From Nitrososphaeria archaeon (GTDB lineage: Archaea; Thermoproteota; Nitrososphaeria; JACIWG01): a DNA stretch of 64,000 nt. The notes beneath the pieces were generated by a model, which worked only from the letters and a program-made list of their open reading frames with translations, was not told the origin of the DNA and made no database searches. Shown here one piece after another: positions 27,536 through 64,000 of the stretch. Each line of letters begins with the position of its first letter. Within the stretch, counting starts at the first letter, position 1. Location: assembly GCA_050011875.1 (NCBI GenBank), contig JBEKIG010000001.1, positions 70,167 through 134,166 on the forward strand, written 5' to 3'. The position numbers were made by a program, and so were the translations under genes.

Positions 27536-28720
27536 TTGGTTTCAGTTAAAATCCTTGATAATTTGTTCTGGGTAGGAATTAATGATAATAGAAACATCTT
27601 ATTTGAAGGATTGTGGCCTATACCTCAGGGCATAACTTACAATTCGTACATTATCAAAGGCTTAGAGAAAACGGTGCTGATAGATACTGTGGACAAGTTC
27701 TATTCAAAAGAGTTCTTAGCAAATGTTAAGGAAGTCGTCGAACCTTCAAAGATCGACCATATAATTCTAAATCACTTGGAACCAGATCACAGCGGATCTC
27801 TTGAGGAAATTCTAAAGTATGCACCTAAAGCAAAAGTTATTGGATCACAGATGGCAATTAATATAGCAAAGGCATACTACCATCAAGACTTCAATAATCT
27901 AGCGGTCAAAGATGGTGAGATAATATCACTTGGTGACCGCACATTAAAAATTATTACTGCCCCTTGGATTCATTGGCCTGAGACAATCTTTACTTATGAT
28001 GTAGAGGATCAAGTTTTATTTTCAGGCGATGCCTTTGGAACCTTTGGCGCCGTGAACGGAAATTTATTTGACGATCAAAAAAATGTTCCATCTTATGAGA
28101 TTGAAATGAAGAGATATTTTGCAGATATAATTTCCCATTATTCACAGTTCGTCATCAAAGCAGGTGAAAAGATTCAAAATCTTCCGATAAAAATTCTCTG
28201 CACAACACACGGCACAATTTACAGGAATAATCCGAACTATCCTATATCTAAATATCTTCTATGGAGTTCAGGTAAAGATGAAAATAAAGTTCTGATCATT
28301 TATGGGAGCATGTATGGACATACAAAAGAATGTGCAGAGTACTTTGGAGCAAAATTAAGAGAAAAAGGGATAAATGTTATCCTACGTGATTTGGGTATAG
28401 TTCATCCAAGTTATGTTTTAACAGATATATTAGATTCAAAGGTGGTTATGATAGGATCACCAACCTATGATGGTCAAATATTCCCGCTTGTATCGAATAT
28501 TATTGAATACATGACGATAAAGCATGTTCGACCTAAGATTTTTGCGATTTTCACAAACTATAGCTGGGGTAGTAATATTATCGATACTCTAAAAGGCAGG
28601 CTTTCAGAAATAGGCATGAGGGTTTTAGAACCACAACTGCTGGTGAAAGGTAAAATATCTGAAGAAGATAAAAAGAAAGCCGACATACTTGTCGAGAATA
28701 TAGTTAATGTCCTTCAATAG
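27536..28720 (+). CDS. fprA: Flavodiiron protein (FprA; metallo-beta-lactamase + flavodoxin domains)
   Basis: Di-iron HxExDH motif ILNHLEPDHSG. A C-terminal flavodoxin-like domain. Length is 394 aa. Confidence 0.85.
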   Translation: MVSVKILDNLFWVGINDNRNILFEGLWPIPQGITYNSYIIKGLEKTVLIDTVDKFYSKEFLANVKEVVEPSKIDHIILNHLEPDHSGSLEEILKYAPKAKVIGSQMAINIAKAYYHQDFNNLAVKDGEIISLGDRTLKIITAPWIHWPETIFTYDVEDQVLFSGDAFGTFGAVNGNLFDDQKNVPSYEIEMKRYFADIISHYSQFVIKAGEKIQNLPIKILCTTHGTIYRNNPNYPISKYLLWSSGKDENKVLIIYGSMYGHTKECAEYFGAKLREKGINVILRDLGIVHPSYVLTDILDSKVVMIGSPTYDGQIFPLVSNIIEYMTIKHVRPKIFAIFTNYSWGSNIIDTLKGRLSEIGMRVLEPQLLVKGKISEEDKKKADILVENIVNVLQ

Positions 28721-31560: not shown

Positions 31561-32121
31561 ATGTCTAAGGGAAAACGAATTGTCAGCATCGAAAATGTTG
31601 TTGCTTCAGCTTCCGTTAATCAAAACATAAATCTAATAGAAATCACAAGAAGGTTTACAAATGTTGAATACAGACCGGACCAGTTCCCAGGATTAGTCTT
31701 CAGACTTAAAACACCTAAAACAGCTACGTTAATTTTTAGTTCCGGAAAGATGGTTTGCACAGGTGGAAAGTCTGAGGAGCAAGCTTTCAAAGCTGTTCAC
31801 ATGGTCGCTAAAATGCTCAAGGAGGGGGGAATAGAAATTACAAATGAGCCTGTAATAGAGATACAGAATATTGTGGCATCTGCCAGTTTAGGTGGGAGAG
31901 TAGATTTAGAAGAGGCAGCAAGGAAGCTTCCTAGATCTATGTATGAGCCTGAACAATTCCCTGGTCTAATCCACAGAATGCTTAAACCTAAGACGGTTAT
32001 ACTACTTTTTGCAAGCGGAAAGCTCGTTTGCACTGGAGCGAAGAAGGAGCAAGAGGTTTATGAAGCCGTCTCTAACCTGCACCAGACCCTTGAGGAGCTT
32101 GCCTTAATGGTTTATCAATAG
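31561..32121 (+). CDS. tbp: TATA-box binding protein
   Basis: Two direct repeats: IENVVASASVNQNINL...QFPGLVFRL and IQNIVASASLGGRVDL...QFPGLIHRM. Length is 186 aa. Confidence 0.9.
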   Translation: MSKGKRIVSIENVVASASVNQNINLIEITRRFTNVEYRPDQFPGLVFRLKTPKTATLIFSSGKMVCTGGKSEEQAFKAVHMVAKMLKEGGIEITNEPVIEIQNIVASASLGGRVDLEEAARKLPRSMYEPEQFPGLIHRMLKPKTVILLFASGKLVCTGAKKEQEVYEAVSNLHQTLEELALMVYQ

Positions 32122-39742: not shown

Positions 39743-40237
39743 ATGAGCATATTAGGAAAAAGTGAAATCGTTAAGTTACAGGAGAAGTATAGAATATTAT
39801 ATCCCTTCAACGATCAGCTTTTGGACGGAGACGGATATATATTGACGGTTAGAAATAGTGTTGTTTTAAATTATCTTGAACACAAGAACTTGATCTCGAG
39901 AGAAATAATCATGCTTCCAACAGACATCGTCGCGCACCTTACAGCGAAAAGTAGATTTGGCAGGCTAGGCCTTTCTTTCCTTAACGCAGCAAAAGTTCAC
40001 AGCGGGTTCGTGGGAAGATTGGCGTTGGAGATGGTAAACCTATCAAATGAGAGGGCGCCCATAACTATAAGACGGAACGACCCCTTTATGCATATTGAAT
40101 TCCTTCAGCGCCTAGGAGAGCCCGATCCTTACAACGGAGAATATCAATTTCAATTCATGACATCGAAAGAAGTAGATGAGACGGTTCCCTTTCTAAAAAA
40201 GATTTTCCCAGATTTTAAGAGCCATCCTAAAAAATAA
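39743..40237 (+). CDS. dCTP deaminase / dUTPase-fold protein (short Dcd-like paralog)
   Basis: Pattern match to dCTP deaminase: LYPFNDQLLDGDGYIL, AKSRFGRLGL, HSGFVGRLALE, PYNGEYQFQ. Confidence 0.55.
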   Translation: MSILGKSEIVKLQEKYRILYPFNDQLLDGDGYILTVRNSVVLNYLEHKNLISREIIMLPTDIVAHLTAKSRFGRLGLSFLNAAKVHSGFVGRLALEMVNLSNERAPITIRRNDPFMHIEFLQRLGEPDPYNGEYQFQFMTSKEVDETVPFLKKIFPDFKSHPKK

Positions 40238-40430: not shown

Positions 40431-41384
40431 CTATTCGACAATTTTCAATTCTTCAGGCGTTAGAATGTTCCTTAATCCCTTGTACCTGTTTCTTATAGTG
40501 ACTTCAGTGACTCCTGCTGCTTCTGCGACATCTTTTTGGGTTTTATTTTCTCCTTCAAGAACGCATGACACATAAAGTGCCGCTGCAGCCAAACCCATCG
40601 GATCTTTTCCGGCAGAAGATAGGCTTTCCTTGGTTCTTGTAATAATATCAATCGCTCTCCTCTTTGTCTTTTCAGATAATCCAGCTGCGCTTGCGATCCT
40701 TGATACGGTCTTTAGTGGATCGGCTACCGGCATCTTTTTTTCCAACTCTCTAACAAGTAAGCGATAGCAACGTGCGATATCCTTCTTTTTGATGTTACTC
40801 GCTGCGCTGACATCTTTCAATGTACGCGGAGTCTCTGTTTCACGACATGCAGCGTAAAGGGAGGCTGCAATAAGAGCAGAAATTGAACGACCCCTAACAA
40901 GACCTTTATCAAGTGCCTGCCTATAAATGTAAGCTGCTCTTTCAACGACCGCATCGCCGACACTAAGTTTATCCGCTAACCTATCGAGCTCACTGAATGC
41001 CTGTCTTAGGTTGCGATCGACAGGTTCATGAACTTGGCTTCTACCGTCCCATGTTCGCAACCTATCGAATGTTGTCTTCATCGCTGATGAAATGCTCTTG
41101 CCAGAAGCGTCCTTGTCTATCTGACTGATTATCGTAGATAAGCCCATGTCGTGCATGGCTAATGAAGATGGCACACCTGTCCTACTACGGCTTTCTTTCT
41201 CTTCTTTAGAGAAAGCTCTCCATTCAGGACCAGCTTCTTCAATTTTCTCCTTTATTACGAAACCGCAGTGACTGCAGAATATTTCACCTCTCGCATTGTC
41301 CAGAATCAATTTAGTACGATTACATCGTGGGCATTTTTCTGTAAGATAAGTAAGGCTTCCCCCAGTAGATTTATCTTCGCTCAT
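40431..41384 (-). CDS. tfb: Transcription initiation factor TFB (TFIIB)
   Basis: N-terminal Zn ribbon CPRCNRT...CSHCG, B-reader and two cyclin repeats. Length is 317 aa. Confidence 0.9.
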   Translation of the reverse strand: MSEDKSTGGSLTYLTEKCPRCNRTKLILDNARGEIFCSHCGFVIKEKIEEAGPEWRAFSKEEKESRSRTGVPSSLAMHDMGLSTIISQIDKDASGKSISSAMKTTFDRLRTWDGRSQVHEPVDRNLRQAFSELDRLADKLSVGDAVVERAAYIYRQALDKGLVRGRSISALIAASLYAACRETETPRTLKDVSAASNIKKKDIARCYRLLVRELEKKMPVADPLKTVSRIASAAGLSEKTKRRAIDIITRTKESLSSAGKDPMGLAAAALYVSCVLEGENKTQKDVAEAAGVTEVTIRNRYKGLRNILTPEELKIVE

Positions 41385-45728: not shown

Positions 45729-46445
45729 TCAAGATAGCTTGTAATATACCCTTTTTCTTCCCTTACCTTTGTTTTCGACTTTTTCTATAGTTATACCTAC
45801 AATCTCTTTGATGTTTGCCACGTGTGGACCACCATCTGCTTGAACGTCAACGTCAGGAATTTCCACGATCCTTAACATATTAATGTTTGGTGGTGCACGC
45901 TGTGCAAGTTTTACTATCCCAGGAATCTCCAATGCTTTTTCTCGCGATAGAAAATATATTTTTACTTCCGCACCCCTACTAATAATTACGTTCGTTTCCC
46001 TTACTGCTTCATCAAAAACCGATTTATCTGACGATTCTAGGTTAAAGTCATCTTTTGCATGCTCAGCGTCTATGTGCCCACCTGTAACGTATACACCATA
46101 TTTTTTGAAAAGAATAGATGAAAGAATGTGAGCTGCAGTATGCAACTTCATAAGTTTATACCTTCTTTCCCAGTCAATGGATCCTGTCAAATTTTCGCCT
46201 ATTTTGATCTTTGGAACCCCTTCAATATTGTGTAAAACGTTTCCCGTCACTTTGTCTTCTGTGACTTGTACGATTCTATAGGTTTCAGATGTTGTGCTAA
46301 TAGAACCTAGGTCACAGTCTACACCACCCGTTAGAGGATGGAATGCTGTTCTATCTAAAACAACTTTATTTTCTTGAACATCCAATACATTGGCGTTAAA
46401 CTCCTTAAGATAGCTGTCCTTCTGAAACAATAATTCTGTTAACAC
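45729..46445 (-). CDS. alaX: Alanyl-tRNA editing protein AlaX (AlaX-M type)
   Basis: Zn-binding HTAAHIL (HxxxH) and GGPHV (CxxxH-equivalent) motifs. Length is 238 aa. Confidence 0.75.
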   Translation of the reverse strand: MLTELLFQKDSYLKEFNANVLDVQENKVVLDRTAFHPLTGGVDCDLGSISTTSETYRIVQVTEDKVTGNVLHNIEGVPKIKIGENLTGSIDWERRYKLMKLHTAAHILSSILFKKYGVYVTGGHIDAEHAKDDFNLESSDKSVFDEAVRETNVIISRGAEVKIYFLSREKALEIPGIVKLAQRAPPNINMLRIVEIPDVDVQADGGPHVANIKEIVGITIEKVENKGKGRKRVYYKLS

Positions 46446-46555: not shown

Positions 46556-47470
46556 TTAAATAGCAGCCTTAGCGCCCTCGCCTATGCTGATAGAAATCTG
46601 TCCCCAAGGTCTGTCTCTATTATGAACTGCACAGTCACCAGCGGCAAAAATCCCCTTGATGGATGTCATCATTTCTCCATCGACTTTAATAAAACCTTGT
46701 TTGTCTTTTTCCACCTCAAACACTTCAGTACAAGGTGTCACCCCTATGTAAACAAAAACACCGTTCACGTTTAGCGTTAACTGCTGCTCTTCTGTATTTT
46801 TTCTGTTTAAGGTGAGGCTTTCGACTTTTTTTGAACCGTTCACTGAAATAACATCTGTAGACCAAAGAAATTTGATATTTTTCATCTGAAAAGCTTTCTT
46901 CTGTAACGTCTTCTCGGCTCTTAAACTGTCTCGTCTATGTATGACATAAACCTTCTTAACTAGACGCGAGAGATAAATAGCTTCTTTTACGGCCCTGTCG
47001 CCACCGCCTACAACCGCAACGGTACCACCTTTAAAAAATTGAGCGTCGCAAAGGGCGCAGTAAGATATTCCTTTGCCAATGAACTCTTGCCCACCTGTGA
47101 TCATCAATTTTTTAGGTTTTGTTCCAGTAGCTATTATAACAGTTTTACCACTGTATTCAATGCCATCGGTAACGATTATTTTGCGCTTCCCTTTATTTAC
47201 TATACGCTGAACCTCCTTTATTTCAATGGGAACATCGTATGCCATAACATGGTCTACAAGTTTTTGGGCAAGATCTTGGCCAGAAATTTTTTTGAACCCT
47301 GGATAATTTTCTATTATATCTGTAACAACAACCTGCCCCCCAAGTCCAAGCTTATCGATTATTATACAGCTCCGCACACTTCGTGCCGCGTAAAGAGCGG
47401 CGACGAGTCCTGCAGGCCCTGCGCCGATAATTATAATATCAAATTCCCTTATCATCTTTTCTTCTAACAT
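46556..47470 (-). CDS. trxB: Thioredoxin-disulfide reductase
   Basis: FAD motif IIIIGAGPAG, redox-active CALCDA, and the NAD(P) motif GGGDRA (VAVVGGGDRAVKEA). Length is 304 aa. Confidence 0.85.
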   Translation of the reverse strand: MLEEKMIREFDIIIIGAGPAGLVAALYAARSVRSCIIIDKLGLGGQVVVTDIIENYPGFKKISGQDLAQKLVDHVMAYDVPIEIKEVQRIVNKGKRKIIVTDGIEYSGKTVIIATGTKPKKLMITGGQEFIGKGISYCALCDAQFFKGGTVAVVGGGDRAVKEAIYLSRLVKKVYVIHRRDSLRAEKTLQKKAFQMKNIKFLWSTDVISVNGSKKVESLTLNRKNTEEQQLTLNVNGVFVYIGVTPCTEVFEVEKDKQGFIKVDGEMMTSIKGIFAAGDCAVHNRDRPWGQISISIGEGAKAAI

Positions 47471-52655: not shown

Positions 52656-53048
52656 ATGGAAATAAATGAGATTCAGCTAGAAGAACTAGATGTCGGACAA
52701 TTTGTTGAGGATAAAGTAAAGGGGGTCCGTTACAGTGTGGGTAATGATTTGGCTGTCAACGTTTTATCCAGTGGCGTCGATTCTTATCGATGTAAAAAAG
52801 AGTTCTTAAACGCTATGGAAGATATAGCTGACCCAGGAAAAAAAAATGGAAGTTATTACTCAGAATACCTTGTCAGCGGTTTCCCTTCCTCAATTAATGT
52901 GATTGTCCTTATGCCTATTCTTCAGTTACCGACAATTACTGTTAAACTAATATTTTTTTCTTCATACACCTCTGAAATTGTTTTCGGAGGCTATCTTTGC
53001 AGGCAGGTATTTAAAGCACTTCAACAGAATTTAAAGAGTATTTCCTAA
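52656..53048 (+). CDS. Hypothetical protein (130 aa)
   Basis: ORF only, with no motifs. It sits upstream of the hydrogenase cluster. Confidence 0.3.
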   Translation: MEINEIQLEELDVGQFVEDKVKGVRYSVGNDLAVNVLSSGVDSYRCKKEFLNAMEDIADPGKKNGSYYSEYLVSGFPSSINVIVLMPILQLPTITVKLIFFSSYTSEIVFGGYLCRQVFKALQQNLKSIS

Positions 53049-53111
53049 ATTTTACGCAATATATAACATAAGCCTCCGATGCAACTTTGATTCTTTTGTT
53101 ACTAGGCAAAT

Positions 53112-53119
53112 TTTAAATA
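53112..53119 (+). promoter_or_regulatory. Candidate TATA box for hydrogenase operon (tttaaata)
   Basis: An AT-rich octamer about 32 nt upstream of the hoxE-like ATG. Confidence 0.3.
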
Positions 53120-53150: not shown

Positions 53151-53651
53151 ATGGCTACAAAAGGCGATTCTCAGTCTACTATGAAGTTTGACAAGCGTCT
53201 CCTATCACTTGACAACGCTCTTAAAACACACAGATATCAGAAGGATTCCCTTCTGGAGGTCCTGCATACAGCACAGGAGTCCTACGGATTTTTAGACAAG
53301 GATATTATGGCTTATGTCGCTAAAGCGCTGAAATTGCCTGCAAGCCATGTTTTTGGGGTTGCAACATTCTATAACTTCTTCAAGCTTAAGAAACCAGGGG
53401 CACATGTCGTTACCTTCTGTTTAGGTACCGCCTGTTATGTTAAGGGTTCAGAAGATATTTTAAAGAAAGTTGAGACTGAATTTAAAGTAAAGCGTGGAGA
53501 ATCTACTGTTGACGGAAAACTTTCTGTTTTTACTACGCGCTGCATTGGCGCATGTGCGATGGCACCTAATGCCATCATAGACGAAAACGTCGAAGGTAGA
53601 GCAACTAGTGAATCTATAATAAAAAAGATAAAAGAGGTTAAAGGAGATTGA
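53151..53651 (+). CDS. hoxE: NuoE/HoxE-like [2Fe-2S] thioredoxin-fold subunit of bidirectional hydrogenase diaphorase
   Basis: CLGTACYVKG ... TRCIGACAMAP, the four-Cys pattern of NuoE/HoxE. Confidence 0.75.
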   Translation: MATKGDSQSTMKFDKRLLSLDNALKTHRYQKDSLLEVLHTAQESYGFLDKDIMAYVAKALKLPASHVFGVATFYNFFKLKKPGAHVVTFCLGTACYVKGSEDILKKVETEFKVKRGESTVDGKLSVFTTRCIGACAMAPNAIIDENVEGRATSESIIKKIKEVKGD

Positions 53652-53656
53652 AATAA

Positions 53657-55318
53657 TTGAGACCTGAAGAACTTCATAAATCGGCAGAAATGGAGCAAGA
53701 ACTCCGTACTTCATATAAATTCAGGATCAATGTTTGCTGTTCAAGTGGATGTGCTCATTTTGGTGCTCTTAAAGTGCTTAAAGCATTTGAAGACGCCGTC
53801 AAAGAGTTCGGTGTCGAAAAGATATGTAAGGTGGCTAGGACAGGCTGCATTGGAACCTGCTCCGTAGGACCAGCCGTTATGATCGAACCAGGTGACTACC
53901 TATATGAGAGCGTGACACCAGAAATGGCGAAAAAAATAGTTAGCGAACATATAGTTAATGGTAGACCAATCAAAGGCAATTTATACAGCAATTCCGACTT
54001 CTTCCAAAAACAGCTTAGGATAGTGTTGAGAGATGCTGGAAAAATCGATCCCCTCAGAATGGAAGACTACATAGCTGTGGGAGGCTATTCCGCGCTTGCC
54101 AAGGCTTTAACAACCATGGAACCGGCACAGGTGATAGCGGCAATATCTGCCAGTGGCTTGAGGGGCCGTGGCGGTGCAGGTTTTCTTACAGGTCAAAAGT
54201 GGAACTTTGTCGCTAAGTCTTCAACGACCCCAAAATATATTGTAGCAAACTTAGATGAAGGAGACCCGGGTGTATTTGCTAACCGCACACTTGCCGAAGC
54301 GGATCCACATTCAATTCTTGAAGGAATGGCTATCGCCGCATACGCCATTGGATCTGAACAAGGTTACATCTACATCCGTAGTGAATACCCTCTAGGGGTC
54401 CAGACATTGAAAAAGGCTGTTGAGCAAGCTAAGACGCAAAGCTTTTTGGGAGAGAAGGTTCTCGGCACAGATTTCAGATTCGATGTTGAACTTAGATTAG
54501 GTGCCGGTGCATTCGTTGCAGGCGAAGAAACCGCTATTCTTGCTTCCATCGAAGGGCGTAGAGCTATGCCACGCCCACGACCACCTTACCCGGCTGTTTC
54601 AGGCCTTTGGGGAAAGCCGACATTAATTAACAACGTAGAAACATTAGCCAATGTCCCATTAATTATATTGAATGGTAGTGCGTGGTTCTCTAAGATAGGT
54701 TCACCAGGCTGCAGTGGAACCAAATGTTTCTCTTTAACGGGCAAGACCAATAATCCCGGATTAATAGAAGTTCCGATGGGTACAACATTGGGAGAAGTGG
54801 TCTACGACATAGGTGGAGGTGTTCCGGAAGGTAGGAAGTTTAAGGCTGTGTTGGTTGGAGGCCCTTCAGGGGGATGTCTTCCCGAAGATAAACTTAATCT
54901 GCCGATAGATTATGATAGTCTCACCAAGGCTGGAGCAATTATGGGATCTGGTGGAATTGTTGTGCTAGATGACAAATCCTGCATGGTGGATACGGCACAT
55001 TTCTTCACAGACTTCTGTGTTGATGAATCATGTGGAAAATGTGTGCCTTGTAGAGTAGGACTCACGAAAGCTAGAGGAATTCTGGCGGGGATCATGGGAG
55101 GTGAAGGAAGAGTTGAGGACTTAGAAAAGCTTGAAAAACTGATGTTTCTGGCCAAGGATGTAAGCCTATGCGGTTTGGGACAGACCGCTGCAAACCCGAT
55201 TTTGACGACTCTCAACTATTTCAAAGACGAATACCTGAAACACATAGTTGAGAAGAAATGCCCTGCAGGAAGCTCGAATTGTTTTAATAAACAAGGTAAG
55301 GGGATGAATACTAAATGA
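53657..55318 (+). CDS. hoxF: NuoF/HoxF-like NAD(P)H-binding FMN Fe-S subunit
   Basis: N-terminal extra [2Fe-2S] thioredoxin-like domain (CCSSGCAHFG...CIGTCSVGP). GRGGAGFLTGQKW FMN/NADH site. ESCGKCVPCRVG 4Fe-4S site. Confidence 0.85.
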   Translation: MRPEELHKSAEMEQELRTSYKFRINVCCSSGCAHFGALKVLKAFEDAVKEFGVEKICKVARTGCIGTCSVGPAVMIEPGDYLYESVTPEMAKKIVSEHIVNGRPIKGNLYSNSDFFQKQLRIVLRDAGKIDPLRMEDYIAVGGYSALAKALTTMEPAQVIAAISASGLRGRGGAGFLTGQKWNFVAKSSTTPKYIVANLDEGDPGVFANRTLAEADPHSILEGMAIAAYAIGSEQGYIYIRSEYPLGVQTLKKAVEQAKTQSFLGEKVLGTDFRFDVELRLGAGAFVAGEETAILASIEGRRAMPRPRPPYPAVSGLWGKPTLINNVETLANVPLIILNGSAWFSKIGSPGCSGTKCFSLTGKTNNPGLIEVPMGTTLGEVVYDIGGGVPEGRKFKAVLVGGPSGGCLPEDKLNLPIDYDSLTKAGAIMGSGGIVVLDDKSCMVDTAHFFTDFCVDESCGKCVPCRVGLTKARGILAGIMGGEGRVEDLEKLEKLMFLAKDVSLCGLGQTAANPILTTLNYFKDEYLKHIVEKKCPAGSSNCFNKQGKGMNTK

Positions 55319-56019
55319 GCTTTCCCAGTATTAAGCTAATGATCGATGAAAGGGAATTAGTTGCCCAACCAAGCACCACGATACTTACAGCTGCGACCGA
55401 TAACGGCATCTATATTCCAACTTTGTGCTACCTGGAGGGTTTAACTAGCCTTGGGGGCTGCCGTCTATGTGTCGTTGAAGTGAAGGGTTCACCCAAGCTT
55501 TTCCCATCTTGCTCTACTCCGGTCAGTAACGGCATGGAGGTTGCGACGGTCTCAGAAAAACTTACTAGATATCGCAAACAACTGGTAGAGCTTTTACTGT
55601 CTGAACGAACTCACATCTGTTCAGTATGCGTTGCAAACGGCGCCTGCGAACTCCAGGCTATGGCGACCAAACTTGGAGTCGACTATGTTAATGTGGAGCG
55701 TGAATGGACTAGATTTGAGGTGGACTCTACTCACAAACGTTTTGTACTTGACAGAAACAGGTGCATTCTATGCACTCGCTGTGTAAGAGTATGTGATGAA
55801 ATAGAAGGCGTTCACACTATAGACCTGAAGCATAGGGGTATTTATTCCCAGATAATCATGGACCTAGACGAGCCCTGGGGATCTTCTTACTCCTGTACCT
55901 CTTGCAGCAAGTGCTCTGCAGTCTGTCCCGTCGGATCAATCTATGTCAAAAACGAACCATTTTCTGAAACAAAGAATCCTGAACTTCCTAAATTCATTAT
56001 TGACAGGAGGCGCAGGTGA
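55315..56019 (+). CDS. hoxU: HoxU-like diaphorase subunit (2Fe-2S plus three 4Fe-4S; NuoG N-terminal homolog)
   Basis: The 2Fe-2S motif CYLEG..GGCRLCVV..PSCSTP. A His-ligated cluster HICSVCVANGAC. The 4Fe-4S motifs CILCTRCVRVCD and CTSCSKCSAVCP. Confidence 0.8.
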   Translation: MSFPSIKLMIDERELVAQPSTTILTAATDNGIYIPTLCYLEGLTSLGGCRLCVVEVKGSPKLFPSCSTPVSNGMEVATVSEKLTRYRKQLVELLLSERTHICSVCVANGACELQAMATKLGVDYVNVEREWTRFEVDSTHKRFVLDRNRCILCTRCVRVCDEIEGVHTIDLKHRGIYSQIIMDLDEPWGSSYSCTSCSKCSAVCPVGSIYVKNEPFSETKNPELPKFIIDRRRR

Positions 56020-56025
56020 TAGTAA

Positions 56026-56559
56026 ATGGTGAAAGTGAAAGTTGCTACGGTCTGGCTAAGCGGGTGCTCAGGATGCCACATGTCGTTCCTAGACCAAGAC
56101 GAGAAGCTCATAGACTTGGCAGAAAAGATGGAACTGGTCTACAGCCCGCTTGTTGACAAAAAGGAATTCCCTGATGGCACCGACATTACACTAATAGAGG
56201 GTGCTGTGGCGAACGTGGAACAGCTAGAGTTGCTAAAGCTTGTCAGAAATCGCACCAAAATCCTTGTATCCCTAGGCGATTGTGCAGTAACAGGAAACGT
56301 TACAGCTCTAAGGAACTGTTTCAGTGACAGTGCGAATTCTGTCCTCAAAAGGGAATTCATCGAAAACACCGATGTTCAACCTCAGATACCGACGGAAGTT
56401 CCTGCACTTCTTGAACACGTTCTTTCACTGCATGAAGCTGTTAAGGTTGACTTCTTTATTCCAGGATGCCCCCCACATGCTGACCTCATAAATTATGTCC
56501 TGTCAGAGCTTTTAGCAGGTAAAATGCCCACAATGGCAGACAAATTCAAGTATGGTTAG
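56026..56559 (+). CDS. hoxY: [NiFe] hydrogenase small subunit (HoxY-type, NuoB-like)
   Basis: GCSGCHMSFLD proximal-cluster motif and a 177-aa short small subunit. Confidence 0.8.
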   Translation: MVKVKVATVWLSGCSGCHMSFLDQDEKLIDLAEKMELVYSPLVDKKEFPDGTDITLIEGAVANVEQLELLKLVRNRTKILVSLGDCAVTGNVTALRNCFSDSANSVLKREFIENTDVQPQIPTEVPALLEHVLSLHEAVKVDFFIPGCPPHADLINYVLSELLAGKMPTMADKFKYG

Positions 56560-56573
56560 GAAGATGAAAAAAT

Positions 56574-58001
56574 ATGGCTGAGAAAATTGTCATAAATCCT
56601 GTAACAAGGATAGAAGGCCACGCAAAGGTGTCCATATTCCTTAAAGAAGACGGAAAAGTACAGGAAGCTAGGTTCGAAATAGTTGACTTCAGAGGCTTCG
56701 AAAAGTTTACTGAAGGCCGTCCTTTTTACGAAATGCCGAGCATAACTTCTAGGTCGTGCGGAATATGTCCTGTGAGCCACCTTTTAGCTTCAGCCAAGGC
56801 ATGCGACCAGATAGCTTCTGTAAAGATAACCAAAACTGCGGAGAATCTGCGTCGTTTAATGCACAACGGACAAATGATTCAATCACATGCTTTAAACTTC
56901 TTCCATCTTTCATCACCAGATTTAATGCTGGGCTTAGATTCTGACCCAGCTAAAAGAAACATCTTTGGTCTAATAGAAAAATATCCAGAAATTGCGAAGC
57001 AAGGGATTAAACTTAGGAAGTTTGGTCAACAGATCATCGAATTTTTGAGCGGCAAAAGAATACATTCCAGTGACTGGATCGTACCGGGAGGTGTAAAATA
57101 TCCGTTTACAAAAGAGAAGCAAAATAGGCTGCTGGCTGATCTTCCAGAAGCCTTAGACATAGCGACTAAAACGCTAGAAACATTCAAGAAAAGCCTTCCA
57201 GAATATGAAGATGAAATAGCAGACTTCGGCAACTTCCCAACCTACTATCTGAGCCTTATAACCCAAGACGGTGGACTCGAGCATTACGATGGGGAAATAA
57301 GGATTAAGGGCCCCAATGGTAATATTATAGAAGACAGACTAGATCCGACCAAGTACCTCGAATACATCGGAGAAGCCTGCGAACCGTGGTCTTATATGAA
57401 GTTTCCATATTATAAGCCTCTGGGATATCCGGACGGAATATATAGGGTTGGCCCACTCGCCAGATTAAATGTTTCTGCAAAATGCGGAACCCCTATCGCA
57501 GATGATGAACTTAATGAGTTCAAAAAACTCGGCAGGAATGGTGTAGTTGAAAGTACTTTCATGTATCACTACGCGCGTTTGATCGAAATAATTTTCTGTG
57601 TTGAGAGGACGAAACAAATGCTTGAAGACTCTGACATTCTCAAAGAGAACGTTTGGGTTAAATCTGATGCCAACCAGAATGAAGGCGTAGGTGTTGCTGA
57701 AGCTCCAAGAGGGACCTTGTTTCACCACTACAAGGTTGACGATTTGGGTCGGATAACTTGGGTGAATATGATCATTGCAACGGAGAACAACAACTTAGCA
57801 TACAACAAGGCAGTAACACAAGTAGCAAAGAAGTATGTAGTAAGTTCAAAGCTTGCAGAAGGAATGTTGAACAGGGTTGAAGCTGTTATACGAGCATTTG
57901 ACCCCTGTCTAAGCTGTGCAACACACGCTTGGGGTGAAATGCCTTTGTCCATCAGCCTTTACAGTTCAAAGGGAAAACTGTTAGATAATGTTACTCGATA
58001 A
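56574..58001 (+). CDS. hoxH: [NiFe] hydrogenase large subunit (HoxH-type)
   Basis: N-terminal RSCGICPVSH (RxCGxCxxxH) and C-terminal DPCLSCATHA (DPCxxCxxH) Ni-Fe ligand motifs. A ~23-aa C-terminal extension follows, consistent with endopeptidase processing. Confidence 0.9.
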   Translation: MAEKIVINPVTRIEGHAKVSIFLKEDGKVQEARFEIVDFRGFEKFTEGRPFYEMPSITSRSCGICPVSHLLASAKACDQIASVKITKTAENLRRLMHNGQMIQSHALNFFHLSSPDLMLGLDSDPAKRNIFGLIEKYPEIAKQGIKLRKFGQQIIEFLSGKRIHSSDWIVPGGVKYPFTKEKQNRLLADLPEALDIATKTLETFKKSLPEYEDEIADFGNFPTYYLSLITQDGGLEHYDGEIRIKGPNGNIIEDRLDPTKYLEYIGEACEPWSYMKFPYYKPLGYPDGIYRVGPLARLNVSAKCGTPIADDELNEFKKLGRNGVVESTFMYHYARLIEIIFCVERTKQMLEDSDILKENVWVKSDANQNEGVGVAEAPRGTLFHHYKVDDLGRITWVNMIIATENNNLAYNKAVTQVAKKYVVSSKLAEGMLNRVEAVIRAFDPCLSCATHAWGEMPLSISLYSSKGKLLDNVTR

Positions 58002-58121
58002 AAATGAACTATATTCTTCTAAATGTCTTGTTCATTAAAGAGAATGTTAACTTTTAGCATAGTAGAAATCATTTTTCCTTTTAAAGAAGTTGCAGATGTT
58101 CTAACGCTATTCAATGTTCAA

Positions 58122-58827
58122 TTAAGTGACCTCAGGGTACGGTGTGATAACTATCTCATCCCGCTTCATAATTGTGTATTGATAGAATTTCATATCATGT
58201 CTTGTCCCTCTCATTTTTACAACCATCATTCTTCTTTTCAGCTCTCCTTTAACTAGTAGAGTTCCAAGTAATATTATTCCTTCGGCTACGAATTCCTCAA
58301 CATCGGATCCGAGACCTTTCTCGCCCAAAGGTTTTTCTGATATTAAAAATGTTGTAAAATCGATCTTTCTGAGCAACTTCTGGATTACGGAAATTGTTGT
58401 CCTAACCTCTTGCTTTTCACTAAAAGCTAAAGTTAGAGCAGTTATAGAGTCTATCACCATTCTTTTCGCACCAAAAAATTCTGGCCTCTTCAAGTACGGT
58501 ATCTAATACTGATTGTAAGCCGATTTTGCTCGTTGCGACAAAATCGAGTATTTTAATCATTCCTTCTTTTTCTAGATGATCAAGATCCTAACCCAACGGA
58601 AACATGTATTGTTTTAACGCGCTATAACTCCCATTAAATGTTATAATCAACCCCTTGTCGGAGTATTTGGTAGCTCCATTGAGAAGGAACTGTATCGAAA
58701 GTATCGTCTTACCGCTTCCTGGTCCACCAGTAATAAACGTAACAAAATCCTTTGAAATTCCTCCTCCCAGTATATTATCTAACTCTGATAACCCCGTCTG
58801 TATTTTTTCTAAAGCCATTCCAGTCAC
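58122..58827 (-). pseudogene. KaiC/RadA-like RecA-superfamily ATPase, split by frameshift
   Basis: The N-terminal piece (58588..58827) carries Walker A GGPGSGKT and the KaiC-like SELDNILGGGI motif. The C-terminal piece (58122..58493) carries VVKMRGTRHD (the KaiC KMRG..H motif). The two pieces are in different frames and are separated by about 95 nt containing stops. Confidence 0.55.
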
Positions 58828-59021
58828 CTAAAAATTTCGAAAACAAACCTTTGAGAATTTTCTGTCGTCTTATCATCCTCCAACCTTTTTACTGAAACTC
58901 TCTTACCCGAAATCTCTTCTAATCCGCCACAAAATATCCCTCTTAATACGTTTTCAGTCATCTGATTCTTGAACAGAATCTTCGAAATCGTAAAGTTGCC
59001 AACACCTTTCTCGTAGTCGAT

Positions 59022-59679: not shown

Positions 59680-60432
59680 TTGAATCTGGACAAAGTTGTA
59701 TTAGGCTGTGAAGTAAATGTTCCAAAATATTGGCAAGATTCGTATCTAAACAAAAATAAAACTAGGATTTTGAGGGTTATGTTCGAAGATAAGAAGAATG
59801 TTTATCTAATTACAGAGGAAACAATCTTTCATCCAAAGTACGGTGGCCAGCCTTCTGATAAAGGAAGAGTCTATAACGAGAAATTTGTTATAAATGTTAA
59901 CAAAACTATGAAGTATAAGGGTATCGTTATCTTATATGGCAAAGTTGAGGTAGGTGAACCAAAGGAAGGTGAAGTTACTGAGGAGATTGACTGGTCTACA
60001 CGTTATCTGATGATGAGACGCCATACGGCTTCCCATCTATTTGATCATGCCCTAGAAGTGGTGACGGGGTCAAAGGTAGAAACGATAGACTCTTGGCTTG
60101 GAGATTCATGGTACATCTCTTTCAAAGGCTCCTCGCCAGGTGAAGAATTGCTCAGGAATGCCGTTGAATTAGAAAACAAAATCATAGCGGAGGGCTATGC
60201 TGTTTCGACAAGACTTGTTGATAGAAGTAGAATGTTAGAGGAGGCAAAAGACTCACCTAACTTGGCTCGTCTTCCTGAACTCGATTTCTACCGAATTGTC
60301 AAGATTAATGGCTTTGAAGACATAGCGTGCAGTGGTACTCATTTAAAAAATATTGCAGAGATAGGCAACATCGAATATGTTAGGTCAGAAACTGTGTCAG
60401 AAGGTTTTAAAGTGTACCTTAATCTTTTGTGA
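59680..60432 (+). CDS. AlaX-like alanyl-tRNA editing domain protein (second paralog)
   Basis: HTASHLFDH (HxxxH) and CSGTHL (CxxxH) Zn motifs of the tRNA-synthetase second additional domain. TTG start. Confidence 0.65.
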   Translation: MNLDKVVLGCEVNVPKYWQDSYLNKNKTRILRVMFEDKKNVYLITEETIFHPKYGGQPSDKGRVYNEKFVINVNKTMKYKGIVILYGKVEVGEPKEGEVTEEIDWSTRYLMMRRHTASHLFDHALEVVTGSKVETIDSWLGDSWYISFKGSSPGEELLRNAVELENKIIAEGYAVSTRLVDRSRMLEEAKDSPNLARLPELDFYRIVKINGFEDIACSGTHLKNIAEIGNIEYVRSETVSEGFKVYLNLL

Positions 60433-60910
60433 TTTGCTCCCTTTGATATCTTCCCCAATAACCTACATTAGCCTTCTTTTCGCTTTTAATTAAGATAAAC
60501 TGGACTATTCTCGCACCCTTTTCTATGGATATGGGATTATCAACTTTCAGCAAGATTCTTGAAAAACCTGTGTATCCAGAGTCCCATAACGCGGCTTCTA
60601 TGTACGCACCCATTCTTACCAGAGAAGATCTTGGCAGACAGAAGCCGACTGCATCTAAGGGGACACATATTTTTTCTTTAACTTGGAATACGTATACACC
60701 TTTATCTAGTGAAAAGAAATTCTCTTCATCCGGGTTAACCTCAACATATTCAGGTAGGACAACGTAGTTTTTGAAGATTTTACCTGATCCAATGATCTTG
60801 AAGAGCTTATCTAGCGTTAAGTCAACGCCATTAGGTTGAATCTGGTCCGCCTCTACTCCTAAAATATATTTTGCTGTATCTTCTCCTATCATAGCACTCA
60901 TTGTGAGCAC
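60419..60910 (-). CDS. dcd: dCTP deaminase / dUTPase family protein
   Basis: QPNGVDLTL, PRSSLVRMG and DSGYTGF, the classic dCTP-deaminase/dUTPase motifs. Length is 163 aa. Confidence 0.75.
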   Translation of the reverse strand: MLTMSAMIGEDTAKYILGVEADQIQPNGVDLTLDKLFKIIGSGKIFKNYVVLPEYVEVNPDEENFFSLDKGVYVFQVKEKICVPLDAVGFCLPRSSLVRMGAYIEAALWDSGYTGFSRILLKVDNPISIEKGARIVQFILIKSEKKANVGYWGRYQREQITKD

Positions 60911-61396: not shown

Positions 61397-61623
61397 CTGA
61401 AGAAGTACTTATAAAATTGATGTAAATAGCTTAAAATTATTACGAGAATCTTTTTTTAAAGACTTGCTGGATCGCATGATCTTTTAAGATTCAATAAAGG
61501 ATTATATTAAACGACTTCTTTGCTGGCTTAAATGTTTTCAACCCCATAAAAGATTTAAATGTGGAAATAGGGACAAACTGCATAGTTAGAGGGAAATATT
61601 TGGATCCTACAAACCAACCTCAG

Positions 61624-64000
61624 ATGAAACTTGTTGAATTTATGCGATTAACAGATAACGTTTCCAAAAAAATTCATGGTGTACTAAACGAACGGGAAAT
61701 TTTTAATATTTTGAAGGAGGAATTTTCTAAATCAAAGAAATATGATATTACAATACTGTTAACAAATAATGACAGAACCAAGCTTGACATGGAAGAAACA
61801 TCTCTGATTCTTAAGAACCTTAAGAAAATACAAAAGATTACTGGCTTAGGAATCAGTAAATACAATATTGAATTAAATAAATCTAAAATTTTCAATAGAG
61901 TCGTAAACGATTGTGAAACATTTGAGGTAAAGACTGGTGATATAATTAGTGAAATTCTTCCTACACCCTTCGCATACCTTGTAACCAGGATGATAGGTCT
62001 GGTAGGAAAAAATACTGTGGTAACACCTTTAAATCGAGAAGGAAAAATTGTAGGAGCTTTAGCTATCTCATCTTCTGAGCAAACAGAGCATTTAATGCTC
62101 CCTGTAAAAAACCTAGCTCAGAATATTTCGATTTCGCTTGAACTCATAGATAGGCACAACGATCTTTTGAAGACAGAAAAAGCACTAGAACAAGAACGTA
62201 ACAAAGCTCAGAAGTACCTAGACGCAGCTGGTTTGATCACACTTTTCATAGACGTTAACGGGTTTGTTCAAAGCATTAATCGGAAAGGAAGCGAATTTTT
62301 AGGATATACAATGCAGGAAATTGTTGGCAAAAATTGGATAGATAACTTCCTACCTGAGAAATCTAGGGAACATGTTAGAATGATATTCACAAATATTGTT
62401 CAAGATCCAACGGAATCGAATTCCCACTATGAAAATTCAGTACTAACGCGCAAGGATGGAGAGCGGTTTCTTACTTGGAATGGCATTCGATTGGAAGATT
62501 CCGATGGCAAGGTTATAGGGATATTAAATTCAGGGAACGATATCACAGAGCACAAGAAAACAGAAGACGAGTTGAGAGCAAGTCAAAGGACTCTTTCATC
62601 ACTAATGAGTAATTTGAGCGGTATGATGTATCGTCGATCCAACGATAATAATTGGACGATGTCGTTCGTCAGTGACGGATGTTTTGACCTTACGGGTTAC
62701 CTTCCATCTGATTTTGTAAAAAATAAGATATCGTACAGCCAGCTAGTACATTCCAGGGACAAAAAAAAGATTCTTGACGCAATTCAAAAATCCTTAACTG
62801 AATCAAAATCTTTTAAAATAGAATACAGGATTTTCACAGCAAATGGTGAAATGAAATGGGTATGGGAAGAGGGTCACGTTATTTCCTCCGGAACTGGTTC
62901 ATATGCTACTCTAGAAGGCTACGTAACCGAAACTACTGTGAGGAAGAAGATAGAAGAGGAGTTAAAGAAGTCAGAAGAAAGCTTCAGGAAGCTGGCAGAA
63001 AACGCGTCAGACATTATCTTTCTGTACGACCTAATAAGAGGTTACGATTATATGAGCCCAGCCTGCATTAAAATAACCGGCTACACTCCCGAGGAATTTT
63101 ATGCAGATAAAAATCTGACTTATAGAACAGTTCACCCTGACGACGTTCACGAATTAACTAAAATGATGGAGGAAGTTAATAAACAGAGAATCCCCGTTCA
63201 ATCAGAAATACGCTGGAGGCACAAGAAAGGTAAGATTGTGTGGACTGAACAGACTTATATTCCAATTCAGGATGAGAAAGGTGACCTTATTGCTTTTGAG
63301 GGCATAGTTAGAGATATTACAGAACGTAAACAAATAGAAGAGGATAGGAGACGCTTTGAAGATAGACTTTCCGCCCTAAATTTTTATGGTGTTACATTGA
63401 ACTCTGCTCAAAACCAGCAGCAAGTTTTCGATCTAACTCTTAACGCTGTAGAGAAAGCACTAGGTTTTGAGTATGCGGCATTCTTGATAATGGACCGAGG
63501 ATACCTCCGACTGGCAAGTCAGAGGGGCATCTCTAGAACTCTTATAAAGGAACTACCTATTGATGACTCAAAAAGAGGAATTGACATTAGAGCATACAAC
63601 ACTCGCAAAGCTATACTCGTAGATGACGTTTGGAAGGATAGAGATTACGTTGAAAATATTCCAGGCATAAGGTCAAAGCTTGTCGTCCCCGTTGAAATTG
63701 AAGACAGAGTAATAGGTGTTTTAAACATACAAAGCAAGAAGGTTGGCGCATTTGATGGAAGAGATATGAAGTTACTCCAGATTTTAGCTTCTCATGCTGC
63801 TGCGGCTATTAGTAGCAAAGAGAAACAAGCTGAAATAGAGAGAAGATCGAACCAACTCTCTTCTCTTATGAAAAGTTCTGCAGAGATTATTCATACAACT
63901 GATCTCTATCAAAGACTAAGTGTGACTGCAAATGCAATAAGAGATTTGGGTTGGAGAAGGGTCGTTATAACGTTAAGAGACGAAAATTTAGAAGTGAAAA
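61624..64000 (+). CDS. Multi-domain sensory protein (N-terminal domain, three PAS-like modules, GAF domain), 5' partial ORF continuing beyond window; likely sensor histidine kinase
   Basis: There is no stop in frame from 61498 to 64000 (792+ codons from the ATG at 61624). The PAS-type linkers NDITEHKKTEDELRAS and VRDITERKQIEEDRRRFEDRL are present. A GAF-like block VVPVEIEDRVIGVLNIQSKK follows. It is not in the supplied ORF track because it is open at the window edge. Confidence 0.7.
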   Translation, partial: MKLVEFMRLTDNVSKKIHGVLNEREIFNILKEEFSKSKKYDITILLTNNDRTKLDMEETSLILKNLKKIQKITGLGISKYNIELNKSKIFNRVVNDCETFEVKTGDIISEILPTPFAYLVTRMIGLVGKNTVVTPLNREGKIVGALAISSSEQTEHLMLPVKNLAQNISISLELIDRHNDLLKTEKALEQERNKAQKYLDAAGLITLFIDVNGFVQSINRKGSEFLGYTMQEIVGKNWIDNFLPEKSREHVRMIFTNIVQDPTESNSHYENSVLTRKDGERFLTWNGIRLEDSDGKVIGILNSGNDITEHKKTEDELRASQRTLSSLMSNLSGMMYRRSNDNNWTMSFVSDGCFDLTGYLPSDFVKNKISYSQLVHSRDKKKILDAIQKSLTESKSFKIEYRIFTANGEMKWVWEEGHVISSGTGSYATLEGYVTETTVRKKIEEELKKSEESFRKLAENASDIIFLYDLIRGYDYMSPACIKITGYTPEEFYADKNLTYRTVHPDDVHELTKMMEEVNKQRIPVQSEIRWRHKKGKIVWTEQTYIPIQDEKGDLIAFEGIVRDITERKQIEEDRRRFEDRLSALNFYGVTLNSAQNQQQVFDLTLNAVEKALGFEYAAFLIMDRGYLRLASQRGISRTLIKELPIDDSKRGIDIRAYNTRKAILVDDVWKDRDYVENIPGIRSKLVVPVEIEDRVIGVLNIQSKKVGAFDGRDMKLLQILASHAAAAISSKEKQAEIERRSNQLSSLMKSSAEIIHTTDLYQRLSVTANAIRDLGWRRVVITLRDENLEVK

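Follow-up and report, generated by a model that had tools for sequence, protein, structure and literature searches.

An archaeal group 3d HoxEFUYH [NiFe]-hydrogenase operon from a Bathyarchaeia-type archaeon and its probable co-coupling to ferredoxin

Five contiguous open reading frames (ORFs) for a HoxEFUYH-type [NiFe]-hydrogenase lie on a contig of a Nitrososphaeria archaeon (GenBank assembly GCA_050011875.1, contig JBEKIG010000001.1), within the 64,000-nucleotide (nt) stretch from position 70,167 to 134,166 that was analysed here and is referred to as the window. All five are on the plus strand, and their coordinates, numbered from the first letter of the window, are identical to those of a preliminary description of this DNA made from the sequence alone. 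The genes and their products, with lengths in amino acids (aa), are as follows:

hoxE, 53151-53651, plus strand: 166 aa, NuoE/HydC-like subunit with one [2Fe-2S] cluster (E1/C1)
hoxF, 53657-55318, plus strand: 553 aa, TTG start, NuoF/HydB-like subunit binding flavin mononucleotide (FMN) and NAD(H)
hoxU, 55315-56019, plus strand: 234 aa, NuoG-N-terminal-like subunit with one [2Fe-2S] and three [4Fe-4S] clusters
hoxY, 56026-56559, plus strand: 177 aa, short [NiFe] small subunit with the proximal [4Fe-4S] cluster only
hoxH, 56574-58001, plus strand: 475 aa, [NiFe] large (catalytic) subunit of group 3d

The packing is operon-like, as three junctions leave 5, 6, and 14 nt between genes and one is a 4-nt overlap (ATGA), and the set is bracketed by two candidate expression signals proposed from the sequence only:

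TATA-box-like element TTTTAAATA, 53111..53119, plus strand: candidate operon promoter upstream of hoxE
Short T-run, 58072..58076, plus strand: in the AT-rich region after hoxH, a possible but weak archaeal terminator signal

The end of TTTTAAATA is 32 nt from the ATG of hoxE; the pattern TTTAWATA occurs 14 times in the window when both strands are counted. A Shine-Dalgarno-like motif precedes each of hoxF, hoxU, hoxY, and hoxH, whereas hoxE has none, which fits a short or absent leader. Absence of the motif at the first gene with presence at the internal genes is the usual pattern of archaeal operons. A 130-aa ORF directly upstream of hoxE (52656-53048, plus strand) is called as a gene in the Joint Genome Institute (JGI) and Logan records; it was left out of the operon, having no Pfam match and no counterpart at any other archaeal hox locus.

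Domains were assigned by Pfam and NCBIfam profiles and ligand motifs by direct inspection, and together they bear out the complete five-gene set claimed in the preliminary description, with every expected set of ligands in place. HoxE matches PF01257 (NuoE-type 2Fe-2S_thioredx; 148 bits) and the NCBIfam HoxE model NF005747 (213.5 bits against a cutoff of 224), and its Cys90/95/131/135 form a C-x4-C...C-x3-C motif. HoxF contains, in order, an N-terminal 2Fe-2S_thioredx domain, Complex1_51K (PF01512), SLBB (PF10531), and NADH_4Fe-4S (PF10589); its N-terminus has the same C-x4-C...C-x3-C motif as HoxE ([2Fe-2S] F2/B5), and the GRGGAGF and GGPSGG motifs and the N3-type [4Fe-4S] (F1/B1) motif C459-x2-C-x2-C...C505 are all present. 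HoxU matches the NCBIfam HoxU model NF005745 (317 bits against a cutoff of 333) and PF13510, PF10588, and PF22117 (Fer2_4, NADH-G_4Fe-4S_3, and Fer4), with its ligands at Cys38/49/52/66 ([2Fe-2S]), H100-x-C102-x2-C105-x5-C111 (His/Cys3), C150-x2-C-x2-C-x3-C, and C194-x2-C-x2-C-x3-C. HoxY belongs to the NuoB-fold family PF01058 (Oxidored_q6), its motifs GCSGC (13-17), GDC (84-86), and GCPP (147-150) supplying the ligands Cys14, 17, 86, and 148; beyond these four proximal-cluster residues the protein has one other cysteine. HoxH carries the NiFeSe_Hases Pfam domain, a precomputed match to PF27537 ‘HoxH’, and the Ni-Fe ligand motifs RSCGICPVSH at residue 60 (L1) and DPCLSCATH at residue 443 (L2), the latter followed by a C-terminal extension of 24 residues, AWGEMPLSISLYSSKGKLLDNVTR. 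The RxCGxCxxxH and DPCxxCxxH motifs and the C-terminal tail that had been read in the large subunit beforehand are thus all present.

Given that NCBIfam returned no HoxH-specific model and that its best match for the large subunit was VhuA, a group 3c protein, the class was tested independently. The usual soluble hydrogenases of archaea belong to group 3c (Mvh/Vhu, linked to heterodisulfide reductase) or group 3b (sulfhydrogenase), and a large subunit of either group would accord with the top NCBIfam models, VhuA for the large subunit (398 bits) and VhuG for the small (137 bits), and with the want of a HoxH- or HoxY-specific model among the matches returned. Both scores, however, are far under the respective cutoffs of 800 and 450, and the score to ShyA was 214 bits against a cutoff of 700. 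When HoxH was compared with all PDB chains, the group 3d chains came first, with 562 bits to HydL of Acetomicrobium mobile (7T2R) and 455 bits to HoxH of Hydrogenophilus (5XF9), followed by the 3c chains of MvhA at 407 and 361 bits, whereas the sulfhydrogenase (3b; SHI alpha) and Frh (3a) chains were distant at 128 bits or less. By tblastn against annotated plasmids, HoxH is identical over its full length at 56% of positions to that of Acaryochloris marina and at 41% to that of Cupriavidus necator; subunit by subunit, identity to the annotated Acaryochloris operon is 47% for E, 51% for F, 49% for U, 52% for Y, and 56% for H, and that of the five subunits to the Cupriavidus soluble hydrogenase (SH) is 26-41%.

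The small subunit and the partner genes speak to the same question. The best PDB match of HoxY is the 179-aa HydS of 7T2R, and its 177 aa and single cluster stand against the three clusters and approximately 300 aa of MvhG (the MvhG/VhuG small subunits being ~290-310 aa); the partners are NuoE/F/G-like, being neither MvhD/Hdr nor the beta and gamma subunits of sulfhydrogenase. Small-subunit length, single cluster, and NuoEFG-like partners all fit group 3d and not 3b or 3c. A neighbour-joining (NJ) tree of HoxH (Kimura distances, 200 bootstraps), built from a limited sampling of group 3d and 3c references from PDB, plasmids, and genomes, recovered the archaeal sequences as one clade (65%). Its sister is a bacterial Hox clade that includes Chromatiaceae, Phycisphaerae, and Acidobacteriota among others (98%), with the clade of the cyanobacterial reference (99%), A. 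mobile HydL, and the classical SH placed successively outward, and all 3d references split from the 3c anchors at 84.5%. Scores, small-subunit length, partner genes, tree placement, and the PF27537 match together rule out group 3c or 3b membership, which is rated as extremely improbable. The ranking of PDB scores, the 56% identity to a cyanobacterial enzyme, and the NJ placement uphold the earlier group 3d call, and the locus almost certainly encodes an archaeal group 3d Hox enzyme. HoxEFUYH is a cytosolic, soluble, five-subunit [NiFe]-hydrogenase, predicted to fall into the H2:NAD(P)+ oxidoreductase class, with homologues as the basis for the assignment of activity.

When one genome per prokaryotic species was scanned, 426 relatives came up, of which the best ~60 are archaeal (63-73% identity; mostly labelled Bathyarchaeia, Bathyarchaeota, Thermoproteota, or Nitrososphaeria), bacterial relatives beginning at 58-60% identity. 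The gene order E-F-U-Y-H is identical in every archaeal locus with enough flanking sequence, hoxE was found at 53 archaeal loci, and the closest relatives (loci L003, L004, and L006) share 72-73% identity with the window. The exact HoxH protein is itself already held by NCBI, in a metagenome-assembled genome (MAG) labelled ‘Nitrososphaeria archaeon’, and by JGI, as ‘NAD-reducing hydrogenase large subunit’. Loh et al. (2021) described group 3d hoxEFUYH in Bathy-6 MAGs from termite gut, in the usual gene order and as sister to the Hox enzymes of phototrophic bacteria (PMC7886697), a placement with which the present HoxH tree agrees, Berben et al. (2022) reported for a Bathyarchaeota MAG that HydDB assigned group 3d (PMC9534799), and Khomyakova et al. 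(2023) listed a Hox hydrogenase in the cultivated Ca. Bathyarchaeum tardum M17C (PMC10477458). The archaeal group 3d hoxEFUYH operon has therefore been known since 2021; with the same operon already published for Bathyarchaeia, the earlier interpretation is right but not new, and the novelty that it implied was overstated.

The closed genome of B. tardum (locus L045; CP122380.1) offers a comparison with a cultivated organism: its five genes have the same order and spacing as in the window, its HoxH (67% identical) falls in the same monophyletic archaeal clade, and its HoxF shares with that of the window three features discussed below, a Cys3His site, a VFAN motif, and the lack of a ferredoxin-like domain. 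The likeness to the Bathy-6 operons of Loh et al. is that of the published description and gene order. About 25 of the archaeal relatives have a second group-3-like [NiFe]-hydrogenase beside the hox operon, typically 2-3 kb upstream of hoxE, and at these loci (in the series L003-L061) it consists of a small subunit of ~250 aa, a large subunit of ~450 aa, and an iron-sulfur/flavoprotein-like partner; the window, unlike them, has no second [NiFe]-hydrogenase beside its hox operon.

As the architecture is best known from bacteria, the possibility had to be considered that bacterial DNA had reached the contig through mis-assembly, mis-binning, or very recent horizontal transfer. Apart from the architecture itself, this reading can draw on the nesting of the archaeal HoxH clade among bacterial 3d lineages, which suggests a past inter-domain transfer, and on a GC content at 53-58 kb (0.43-0.46) slightly over the window mean of ~0.40. 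Several other blocks of the window are equally high, however, and in the codon usage and GC comparison proposed in the preliminary description the cluster proved typical of the window: the GC content at third codon positions (GC3) of hoxEFUYH, 0.365-0.472, lies within the 0.287-0.506 of the other 49 window genes, and the pooled distance in relative synonymous codon usage between the cluster and the rest of the window is 0.228, compared with 0.222 +/- 0.041 for contiguous gene blocks of about the same size elsewhere in it. Four contigs are on record with the exact HoxH protein, and in the three of these that were read, a JGI metagenome contig of 570,544 nt (3300039412, Ga0427922_0000013) and two unrelated assemblies from SRA, the same genes lie on both sides of the cluster. 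The downstream flank, comprising KaiC-like fragments, an Lrp/AsnC regulator, and a dCTP-deaminase-like gene, is common to the three closest relatives. The expression signals are archaeal-looking, and the operon is monophyletic in ~60 archaeal species at 63-73% identity, with the nearest bacteria at 58-60%.

Three of the archaeal genes that had been noted around the cluster, and the two redox genes of its vicinity, were identified by Pfam as follows:

Sec11-type signal peptidase, 26765-27295
FprA-like flavodiiron protein, 27536-28720
TBP, 31561-32121
TFB, 40431-41384
TrxB-like reductase, 46556-47470

TBP, TFB, and Sec11 thus agree with the archaeal flanks described beforehand. The ‘intron tRNA’ counted among those flanks could not be recovered: over the whole window, ARAGORN found no tRNA, and Rfam returned neither a tRNA nor any other family at gathering score or E <= 0.01. 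Intron-containing archaeal tRNAs can escape both programs. The FprA and TrxB genes are confirmed at 6-25 kb from the hox cluster, and to read from them an organism that copes with O2 is speculation; genes of these types are common in strict anaerobes. With the same junctions in three assemblies, typical codon usage, archaeal-looking signals, and a shared flank, a chimera or recent transfer is excluded, and the introduction of bacterial DNA by any of the routes named above is regarded as very improbable. The contig is thus no chimera and the cluster belongs natively to an archaeon of Bathyarchaeia type, so that the archaeal context claimed earlier is no binning artefact. Given the shared archaeal clade, flanks, and codon usage, any transfer must be ancient and precede the diversification of the archaeal clade.

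The KaiC/RadA-like ATPase gene of the downstream flank (58122-59021, minus strand) is broken into three consecutive ORF fragments of 123, 79, and ~45-65 aa, which partly cover the PF06745 profile and have homologous counterparts in the relatives L003, L004, and L006. Since the split is seen in three independent assemblies, it is a real pseudogene or a programmed split and not a sequencing error.

Among solved structures, the best matches for H (562 bits, 54% identity) as well as for Y, U, and F are all chains of the bifurcating NiFe-HydABCSL of A. mobile (7T2R/7T30; PMC8880783), and HoxF shares with HydB of that enzyme an N-terminal [2Fe-2S] domain and the Cys3His ligands of the ‘B2’ site, which would suggest that the window enzyme is a true member of the Bfu family (NiFe-HydABCSL type). 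Schut et al. (2022) defined BfuB by four InterPro domains, among them IPR017896, the 2x[4Fe-4S] ferredoxin-type domain that holds B3/B4. The counterparts of IPR011538, IPR019554, and IPR019575 (BfuB) and of IPR002023 (BfuC) are found here through PF01512, PF10531, and PF10589 and through PF01257 in HoxE, and the Cys3His hinge site is recognisable in the HoxF sequence at C442, H529, C535, and C542. IPR017896, however, is missing. The 553-aa HoxF aligns to the 597-aa HydB (7T2R_B; 648 bits, 55% identity), which has the B3/B4 domain, only as far as chain residue 534, and it ends at residue 553, 11 residues past C542; because the alignment stops at the hinge and the protein ends so soon after it, the ferredoxin-like domain is absent. 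HoxF accordingly has no Fer4 Pfam match, and the motif CxxCxxCxxxCP occurs in none of the 53 archaeal HoxF sequences.

The other subunits differ likewise from the Bfu pattern. The long HydA with an [FeFe]-hydrogenase-like C-terminal domain (A5), a criterion of the NiFe-HydABCSL type, has no equivalent, as HoxU has 234 aa against 692 in A. mobile HydA, aligns only to residues 4-211 of the latter, and has nothing to match the whole C-terminal half of HydA. The E/C subunit is HoxE-type, with 213 bits to the HoxE model against 101 bits to HydC of 7T2R, and in the HoxH tree the clade that unites archaeal with bacterial Hox proteins leaves out A. mobile HydL. With no ferredoxin-like domain and a short HoxU, HoxEFUYH is not a Bfu member by definition; such membership is very unlikely and was rejected on the missing defining domain. 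As for a separate ferredoxin gene that could supply B3/B4 in trans, no family recurs immediately beside the archaeal operons; Fer4-containing ORFs occur in 8-12 archaeal loci at a median distance of ~2-3 kb and are not fixed neighbours.

The hinge site that HoxF retains is nevertheless that of the Bfu enzymes. Feng et al. (2022) located B3/B4 in the C-terminal domain of the A. mobile protein and gave Cys438, Cys476 (semi-conserved), His525, Cys531, and Cys536 as the B2 ligands (PMC8880783), and residue-by-residue alignment places C442, M480, H529, C535, and C542 of the window HoxF at these positions. In later structures B2 was assigned to Zn2+, as a hinge that joins the four-helix bundle to the ferredoxin-like domain, and its His was reported as conserved in virtually all BfuB and as absent from non-bifurcating homologues (PMC12018979). 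Across the 53 archaeal HoxF, C442, H529, and C535 are invariant, and 4-13 residues follow the last Cys of the site. That last Cys stands in a C-x4-C arrangement (e.g., CPAGKC) in 52 of the 53, whereas the window HoxF, alone among them, has C-x6-C (CPAGSSNC, residues 535-542), a two-residue insertion. The fifth B2 position, Cys476 in A. mobile, is Met480 in the window and mostly Thr in archaeal HoxF, as it is in the Zn-binding Bfu enzymes (PMC12018979). Nine of 10 bacterial HoxF from the nearest Hox clades are missing all of the Cys3His residues, the tenth (L066) being long and Bfu-like. This last locus (L066, 5511-8729, from the uncultured bacterium MFD01231) is a NiFe-Bfu-like variant at the base of the bacterial sister clade, with a HoxH 59% identical to that of the window and an F subunit in an open frame of ~1070 residues.

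The flavin pocket of archaeal HoxF is distinctive as well. All 53 sequences read NLDEGDPGVFANR (starting at residue 198 in the window), with VFAN in place of AFMD, and the 13 that were aligned for the Phe motif have GAGAF(V/I)AGEE, one of them with GAGSF; the Bfu and bacterial HoxF references read ...AFMDR in all but the Bfu-like L066, and GAGAF(V/I)CGEE in all. Among the Bfu flavin-pocket motifs, GGPSG and the Phe of GAGAF are thus present in HoxF and AFM is replaced by VFA. The Asp next to the isoalloxazine ring (the D of N-x-D-EG) is conserved in archaeal HoxF; that the archaeal D-to-N change might affect this ring-adjacent residue was considered and rejected, the change being at the FM(D)R position. 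The literature that could be searched makes no mention of the Cys3His and VFAN features of archaeal HoxF.

The site most likely binds a structural metal (Zn2+), and is probably a remnant of a Bfu-type ancestor in which the ferredoxin-like domain came after it; a more novel possibility is that a free archaeal ferredoxin may dock or be gated there. The archaeal protein bears in this way on the kinship of Hox and Bfu enzymes, for it has the Bfu hinge metal site without the domain normally held by the hinge. That archaeal HoxEFUYH might constitute an unrecognised third architecture between the Bfu-type and the bacterial/cyanobacterial Hox enzymes, with bifurcation through a functional site, is suggested by the same motifs but is considered unlikely.

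The cyanobacterial HoxEFUYH (Synechocystis sp. PCC 6803, with the Acaryochloris marina plasmid pREB4, L001, as the sequence reference) has the same five subunits as the window and the same predicted cofactors, namely E1, F1, F2, and FMN, one [2Fe-2S] and three [4Fe-4S] in U, Y1, and Ni-Fe. Its HoxF is likewise without the ferredoxin-like domain and conserves GGPSG, the Phe motif, and the Asp of N-x-D-EG, but has no Cys3His site, with N, L, and S at the positions of C442, H529, and C535, and keeps AFMD and the Cys of the flavin pocket where the archaeal proteins have VFAN and Ala. The Acaryochloris hox genes are interrupted by unrelated genes, with hyp and hoxW adjacent. The SH, HoxFUYH of Cupriavidus necator H16 and Hydrogenophilus thermoluteolus (5XF9), belongs to the same group 3d (HoxH, 455 bits to 5XF9_D) and has the same overall path from NiFe through the small-subunit cluster and the HoxU chain to the FMN of HoxF and NAD(H). 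In the SH, HoxE was fused to HoxF and its cluster lost (Feng et al., PMC8880783), the flavin motifs differ from those of the window (EGEPGTFKDR, GAGAYICGDE, and SGPSGE), and hoxW and hyp genes directly follow hoxH.

On the model of the 5XF9 and 7T2R structures and of the work on Synechocystis, from which the electron path and the NAD(H) partner are inferred, the Ni-Fe site of HoxH would cleave or produce H2, and electrons would pass through the single proximal [4Fe-4S] of HoxY, the [4Fe-4S]/[2Fe-2S] chain of HoxU, and the N3-type [4Fe-4S] of HoxF to FMN, where NAD(H) would be reduced or oxidised. A low-potential branch would lead from FMN to the [2Fe-2S] of HoxE and the N-terminal [2Fe-2S] of HoxF, and would most likely exchange electrons with ferredoxin. 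H2 would then be coupled jointly to NAD+ and ferredoxin, by bifurcation on uptake and by confurcation on production.

Three lines of evidence make such co-coupling of ferredoxin the more likely reading. The ‘flavobicluster’ of FMN, B1, and C1 that was proposed as the bifurcating core of Bfu enzymes (PMC12018979) is fully encoded in the window operon; Synechocystis HoxEFU reacts with ferredoxin through its low-potential [2Fe-2S] clusters (PMC7363133, PMC11647496); and a 2026 preprint reported that the intact Synechocystis HoxEFUYH, itself without a ferredoxin-like domain, strictly needs both NAD(H) and ferredoxin in both directions. HoxF is in addition 52-55% identical to bifurcating HydB proteins, and the Bfu-specific His/Cys site, kept in 53/53 archaeal HoxF, was also counted for bifurcation. 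By analogy with these enzymes, a bifurcating coupling to ferredoxin and NAD(H) is given even odds or slightly better.

The same enzyme may instead be classical and non-bifurcating, a bidirectional hydrogenase linked to NAD(P)(H) that simply brings H2 and the pyridine-nucleotide pool into equilibrium, its [2Fe-2S] clusters in HoxE and HoxF being accessory or regulatory centres and ferredoxin no obligatory co-substrate. This is the textbook group 3d assignment, used by Loh et al. (2021) for Bathyarchaeia and in the JGI annotation, and two properties of archaeal HoxF would suit it: the lack of the B3/B4 ferredoxin-like domain, and the VFAN that replaces the AFMD of all bifurcating references and the cyanobacterial enzyme, which could mean a differently tuned flavin. 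It is countered by the conservation of the full FMN, B1, and C1 core and the N-terminal cluster, by the strict bifurcation reported for the nearest homologue that has been characterised and shares the cofactor set, and by the argument, in the discussion of the same preprint, that H2 production from NADH alone is thermodynamically poor. The classical mechanism is accordingly judged the less probable of the two, though a serious contender.

Several points weigh against bifurcation in turn. For archaeal Hox enzymes the case is drawn from homologues and not from biochemistry, and the cyanobacterial result comes from a preprint that has not been peer reviewed. AFM, one of three motifs characteristic of bifurcating hydrogenases, is VFA in 53/53 archaeal HoxF; the Asp after it has become Asn, and the Cys of GAGAFVCGEE has become Ala. 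HoxF has no B3/B4 domain, the relay by which electrons reach ferredoxin in Bfu enzymes. Archaeal ferredoxins, moreover, differ in type from the plant-type ferredoxin of the cyanobacterial enzyme. The HoxF tree, like that of HoxH an NJ tree of limited sampling, has supports of 50-64%, too low to place the archaeal clade nearer to either Bfu or bacterial HoxF. Finally, with no maturation protease and no hyp gene found in the window, the competence of the enzyme for maturation can only be presumed. On balance, a native archaeal group 3d HoxEFUYH with probable co-coupling to ferredoxin is the best explanation overall, at a probability of roughly 0.55.

That no hyp gene or HoxW-type endopeptidase gene lies in the window, as the preliminary description had stated, was borne out in three ways. 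Searches by tblastn with bacterial queries gave no match to HypA/B/C/F, HoxW, or an AIR-synthase-like protein (HypD and HypE were not queried directly), a profile of the archaeal maturation proteases from related loci found no protease (best E = 0.3), and no hyp or hoxW gene appeared when 30 other window ORFs were scanned with Pfam. In group 3d enzymes a dedicated endopeptidase, HoxW, cleaves off the C-terminal extension of HoxH and HypA-F serve maturation; the genes for these would have to lie elsewhere in the genome. In nearly all bacterial relatives with downstream sequence (the set L062-L082), hoxW directly follows hoxH; it does so in one of ~55 archaeal loci (L048, 11377-11847), and at 13 further archaeal loci an archaeal-type protease (of the GNELRGDDAAG type) is found within a few kb, often beside the second [NiFe]-hydrogenase. 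Proteases or a HypF fragment thus occur near the operon in 14 related archaeal loci, and in the archaeal lineage the protease gene seems to have become separated from the hox operon. The Chromatiaceae loci L069, L070, L072, L077-L079, L081, and L082 have the order hoxU-Y-H-W with no hoxE or hoxF in the flanks retrieved (E <= 1e-15); the diaphorase genes of these loci either lie at other sites or have diverged too far for that threshold.

Some further genes of the window deserve mention. An adenosine-specific kinase gene (PF04008; 42516-42998, minus strand) lies 10 kb upstream of the hox operon, and a 53%-identical kinase is encoded on the Acaryochloris plasmid pREB4 (L001, 13276-13758), in the hyp cluster between hypF and hypB and near a geranylgeranylglycerol-phosphate-transferase-like gene. 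PF04008 is typically an archaeal family. That the kinase is present in both contexts may be chance, or it may reflect exchange between archaea and bacteria in the neighbourhood of hox and hyp genes. Two pairs of paralogues lie within 21 kb, one AlaX-like (tRNA_SAD with the AlaRS C-terminal editing domain; 45729-46445, minus strand, and 59680-60432, plus strand) and one dCTP-deaminase/dUTPase-like (39743-40237, plus strand, and 60419-60910, minus strand). A large PAS/PAS/GAF sensor gene begins 3.5 kb downstream of hoxH (61498-64000, plus strand) and runs off the end of the window; in the full contig (L083, 14988-18629) it encodes 1213 aa and is followed by a response-regulator gene.

The operon adds one more genome to a published pattern, in which Bathyarchaeia and their relatives possess an anciently acquired and now native group 3d Hox enzyme. 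Bathyarchaeia are among the most abundant archaea of anoxic sediments, and their hydrogen and acetogenic metabolism has been inferred almost wholly from genomes. Current models let Hox deal with NADH only and have the membrane-bound Hfo spend an ion gradient to reduce ferredoxin. The work on the cyanobacterial enzyme, taken with the Bfu-like features of archaeal HoxF, makes H2-driven reduction of ferredoxin plausible; if bifurcation were true of these enzymes, they would let H2 drive the reduction of ferredoxin for the Wood-Ljungdahl pathway wholly within the cytosol, and the energy models of these archaea would change.

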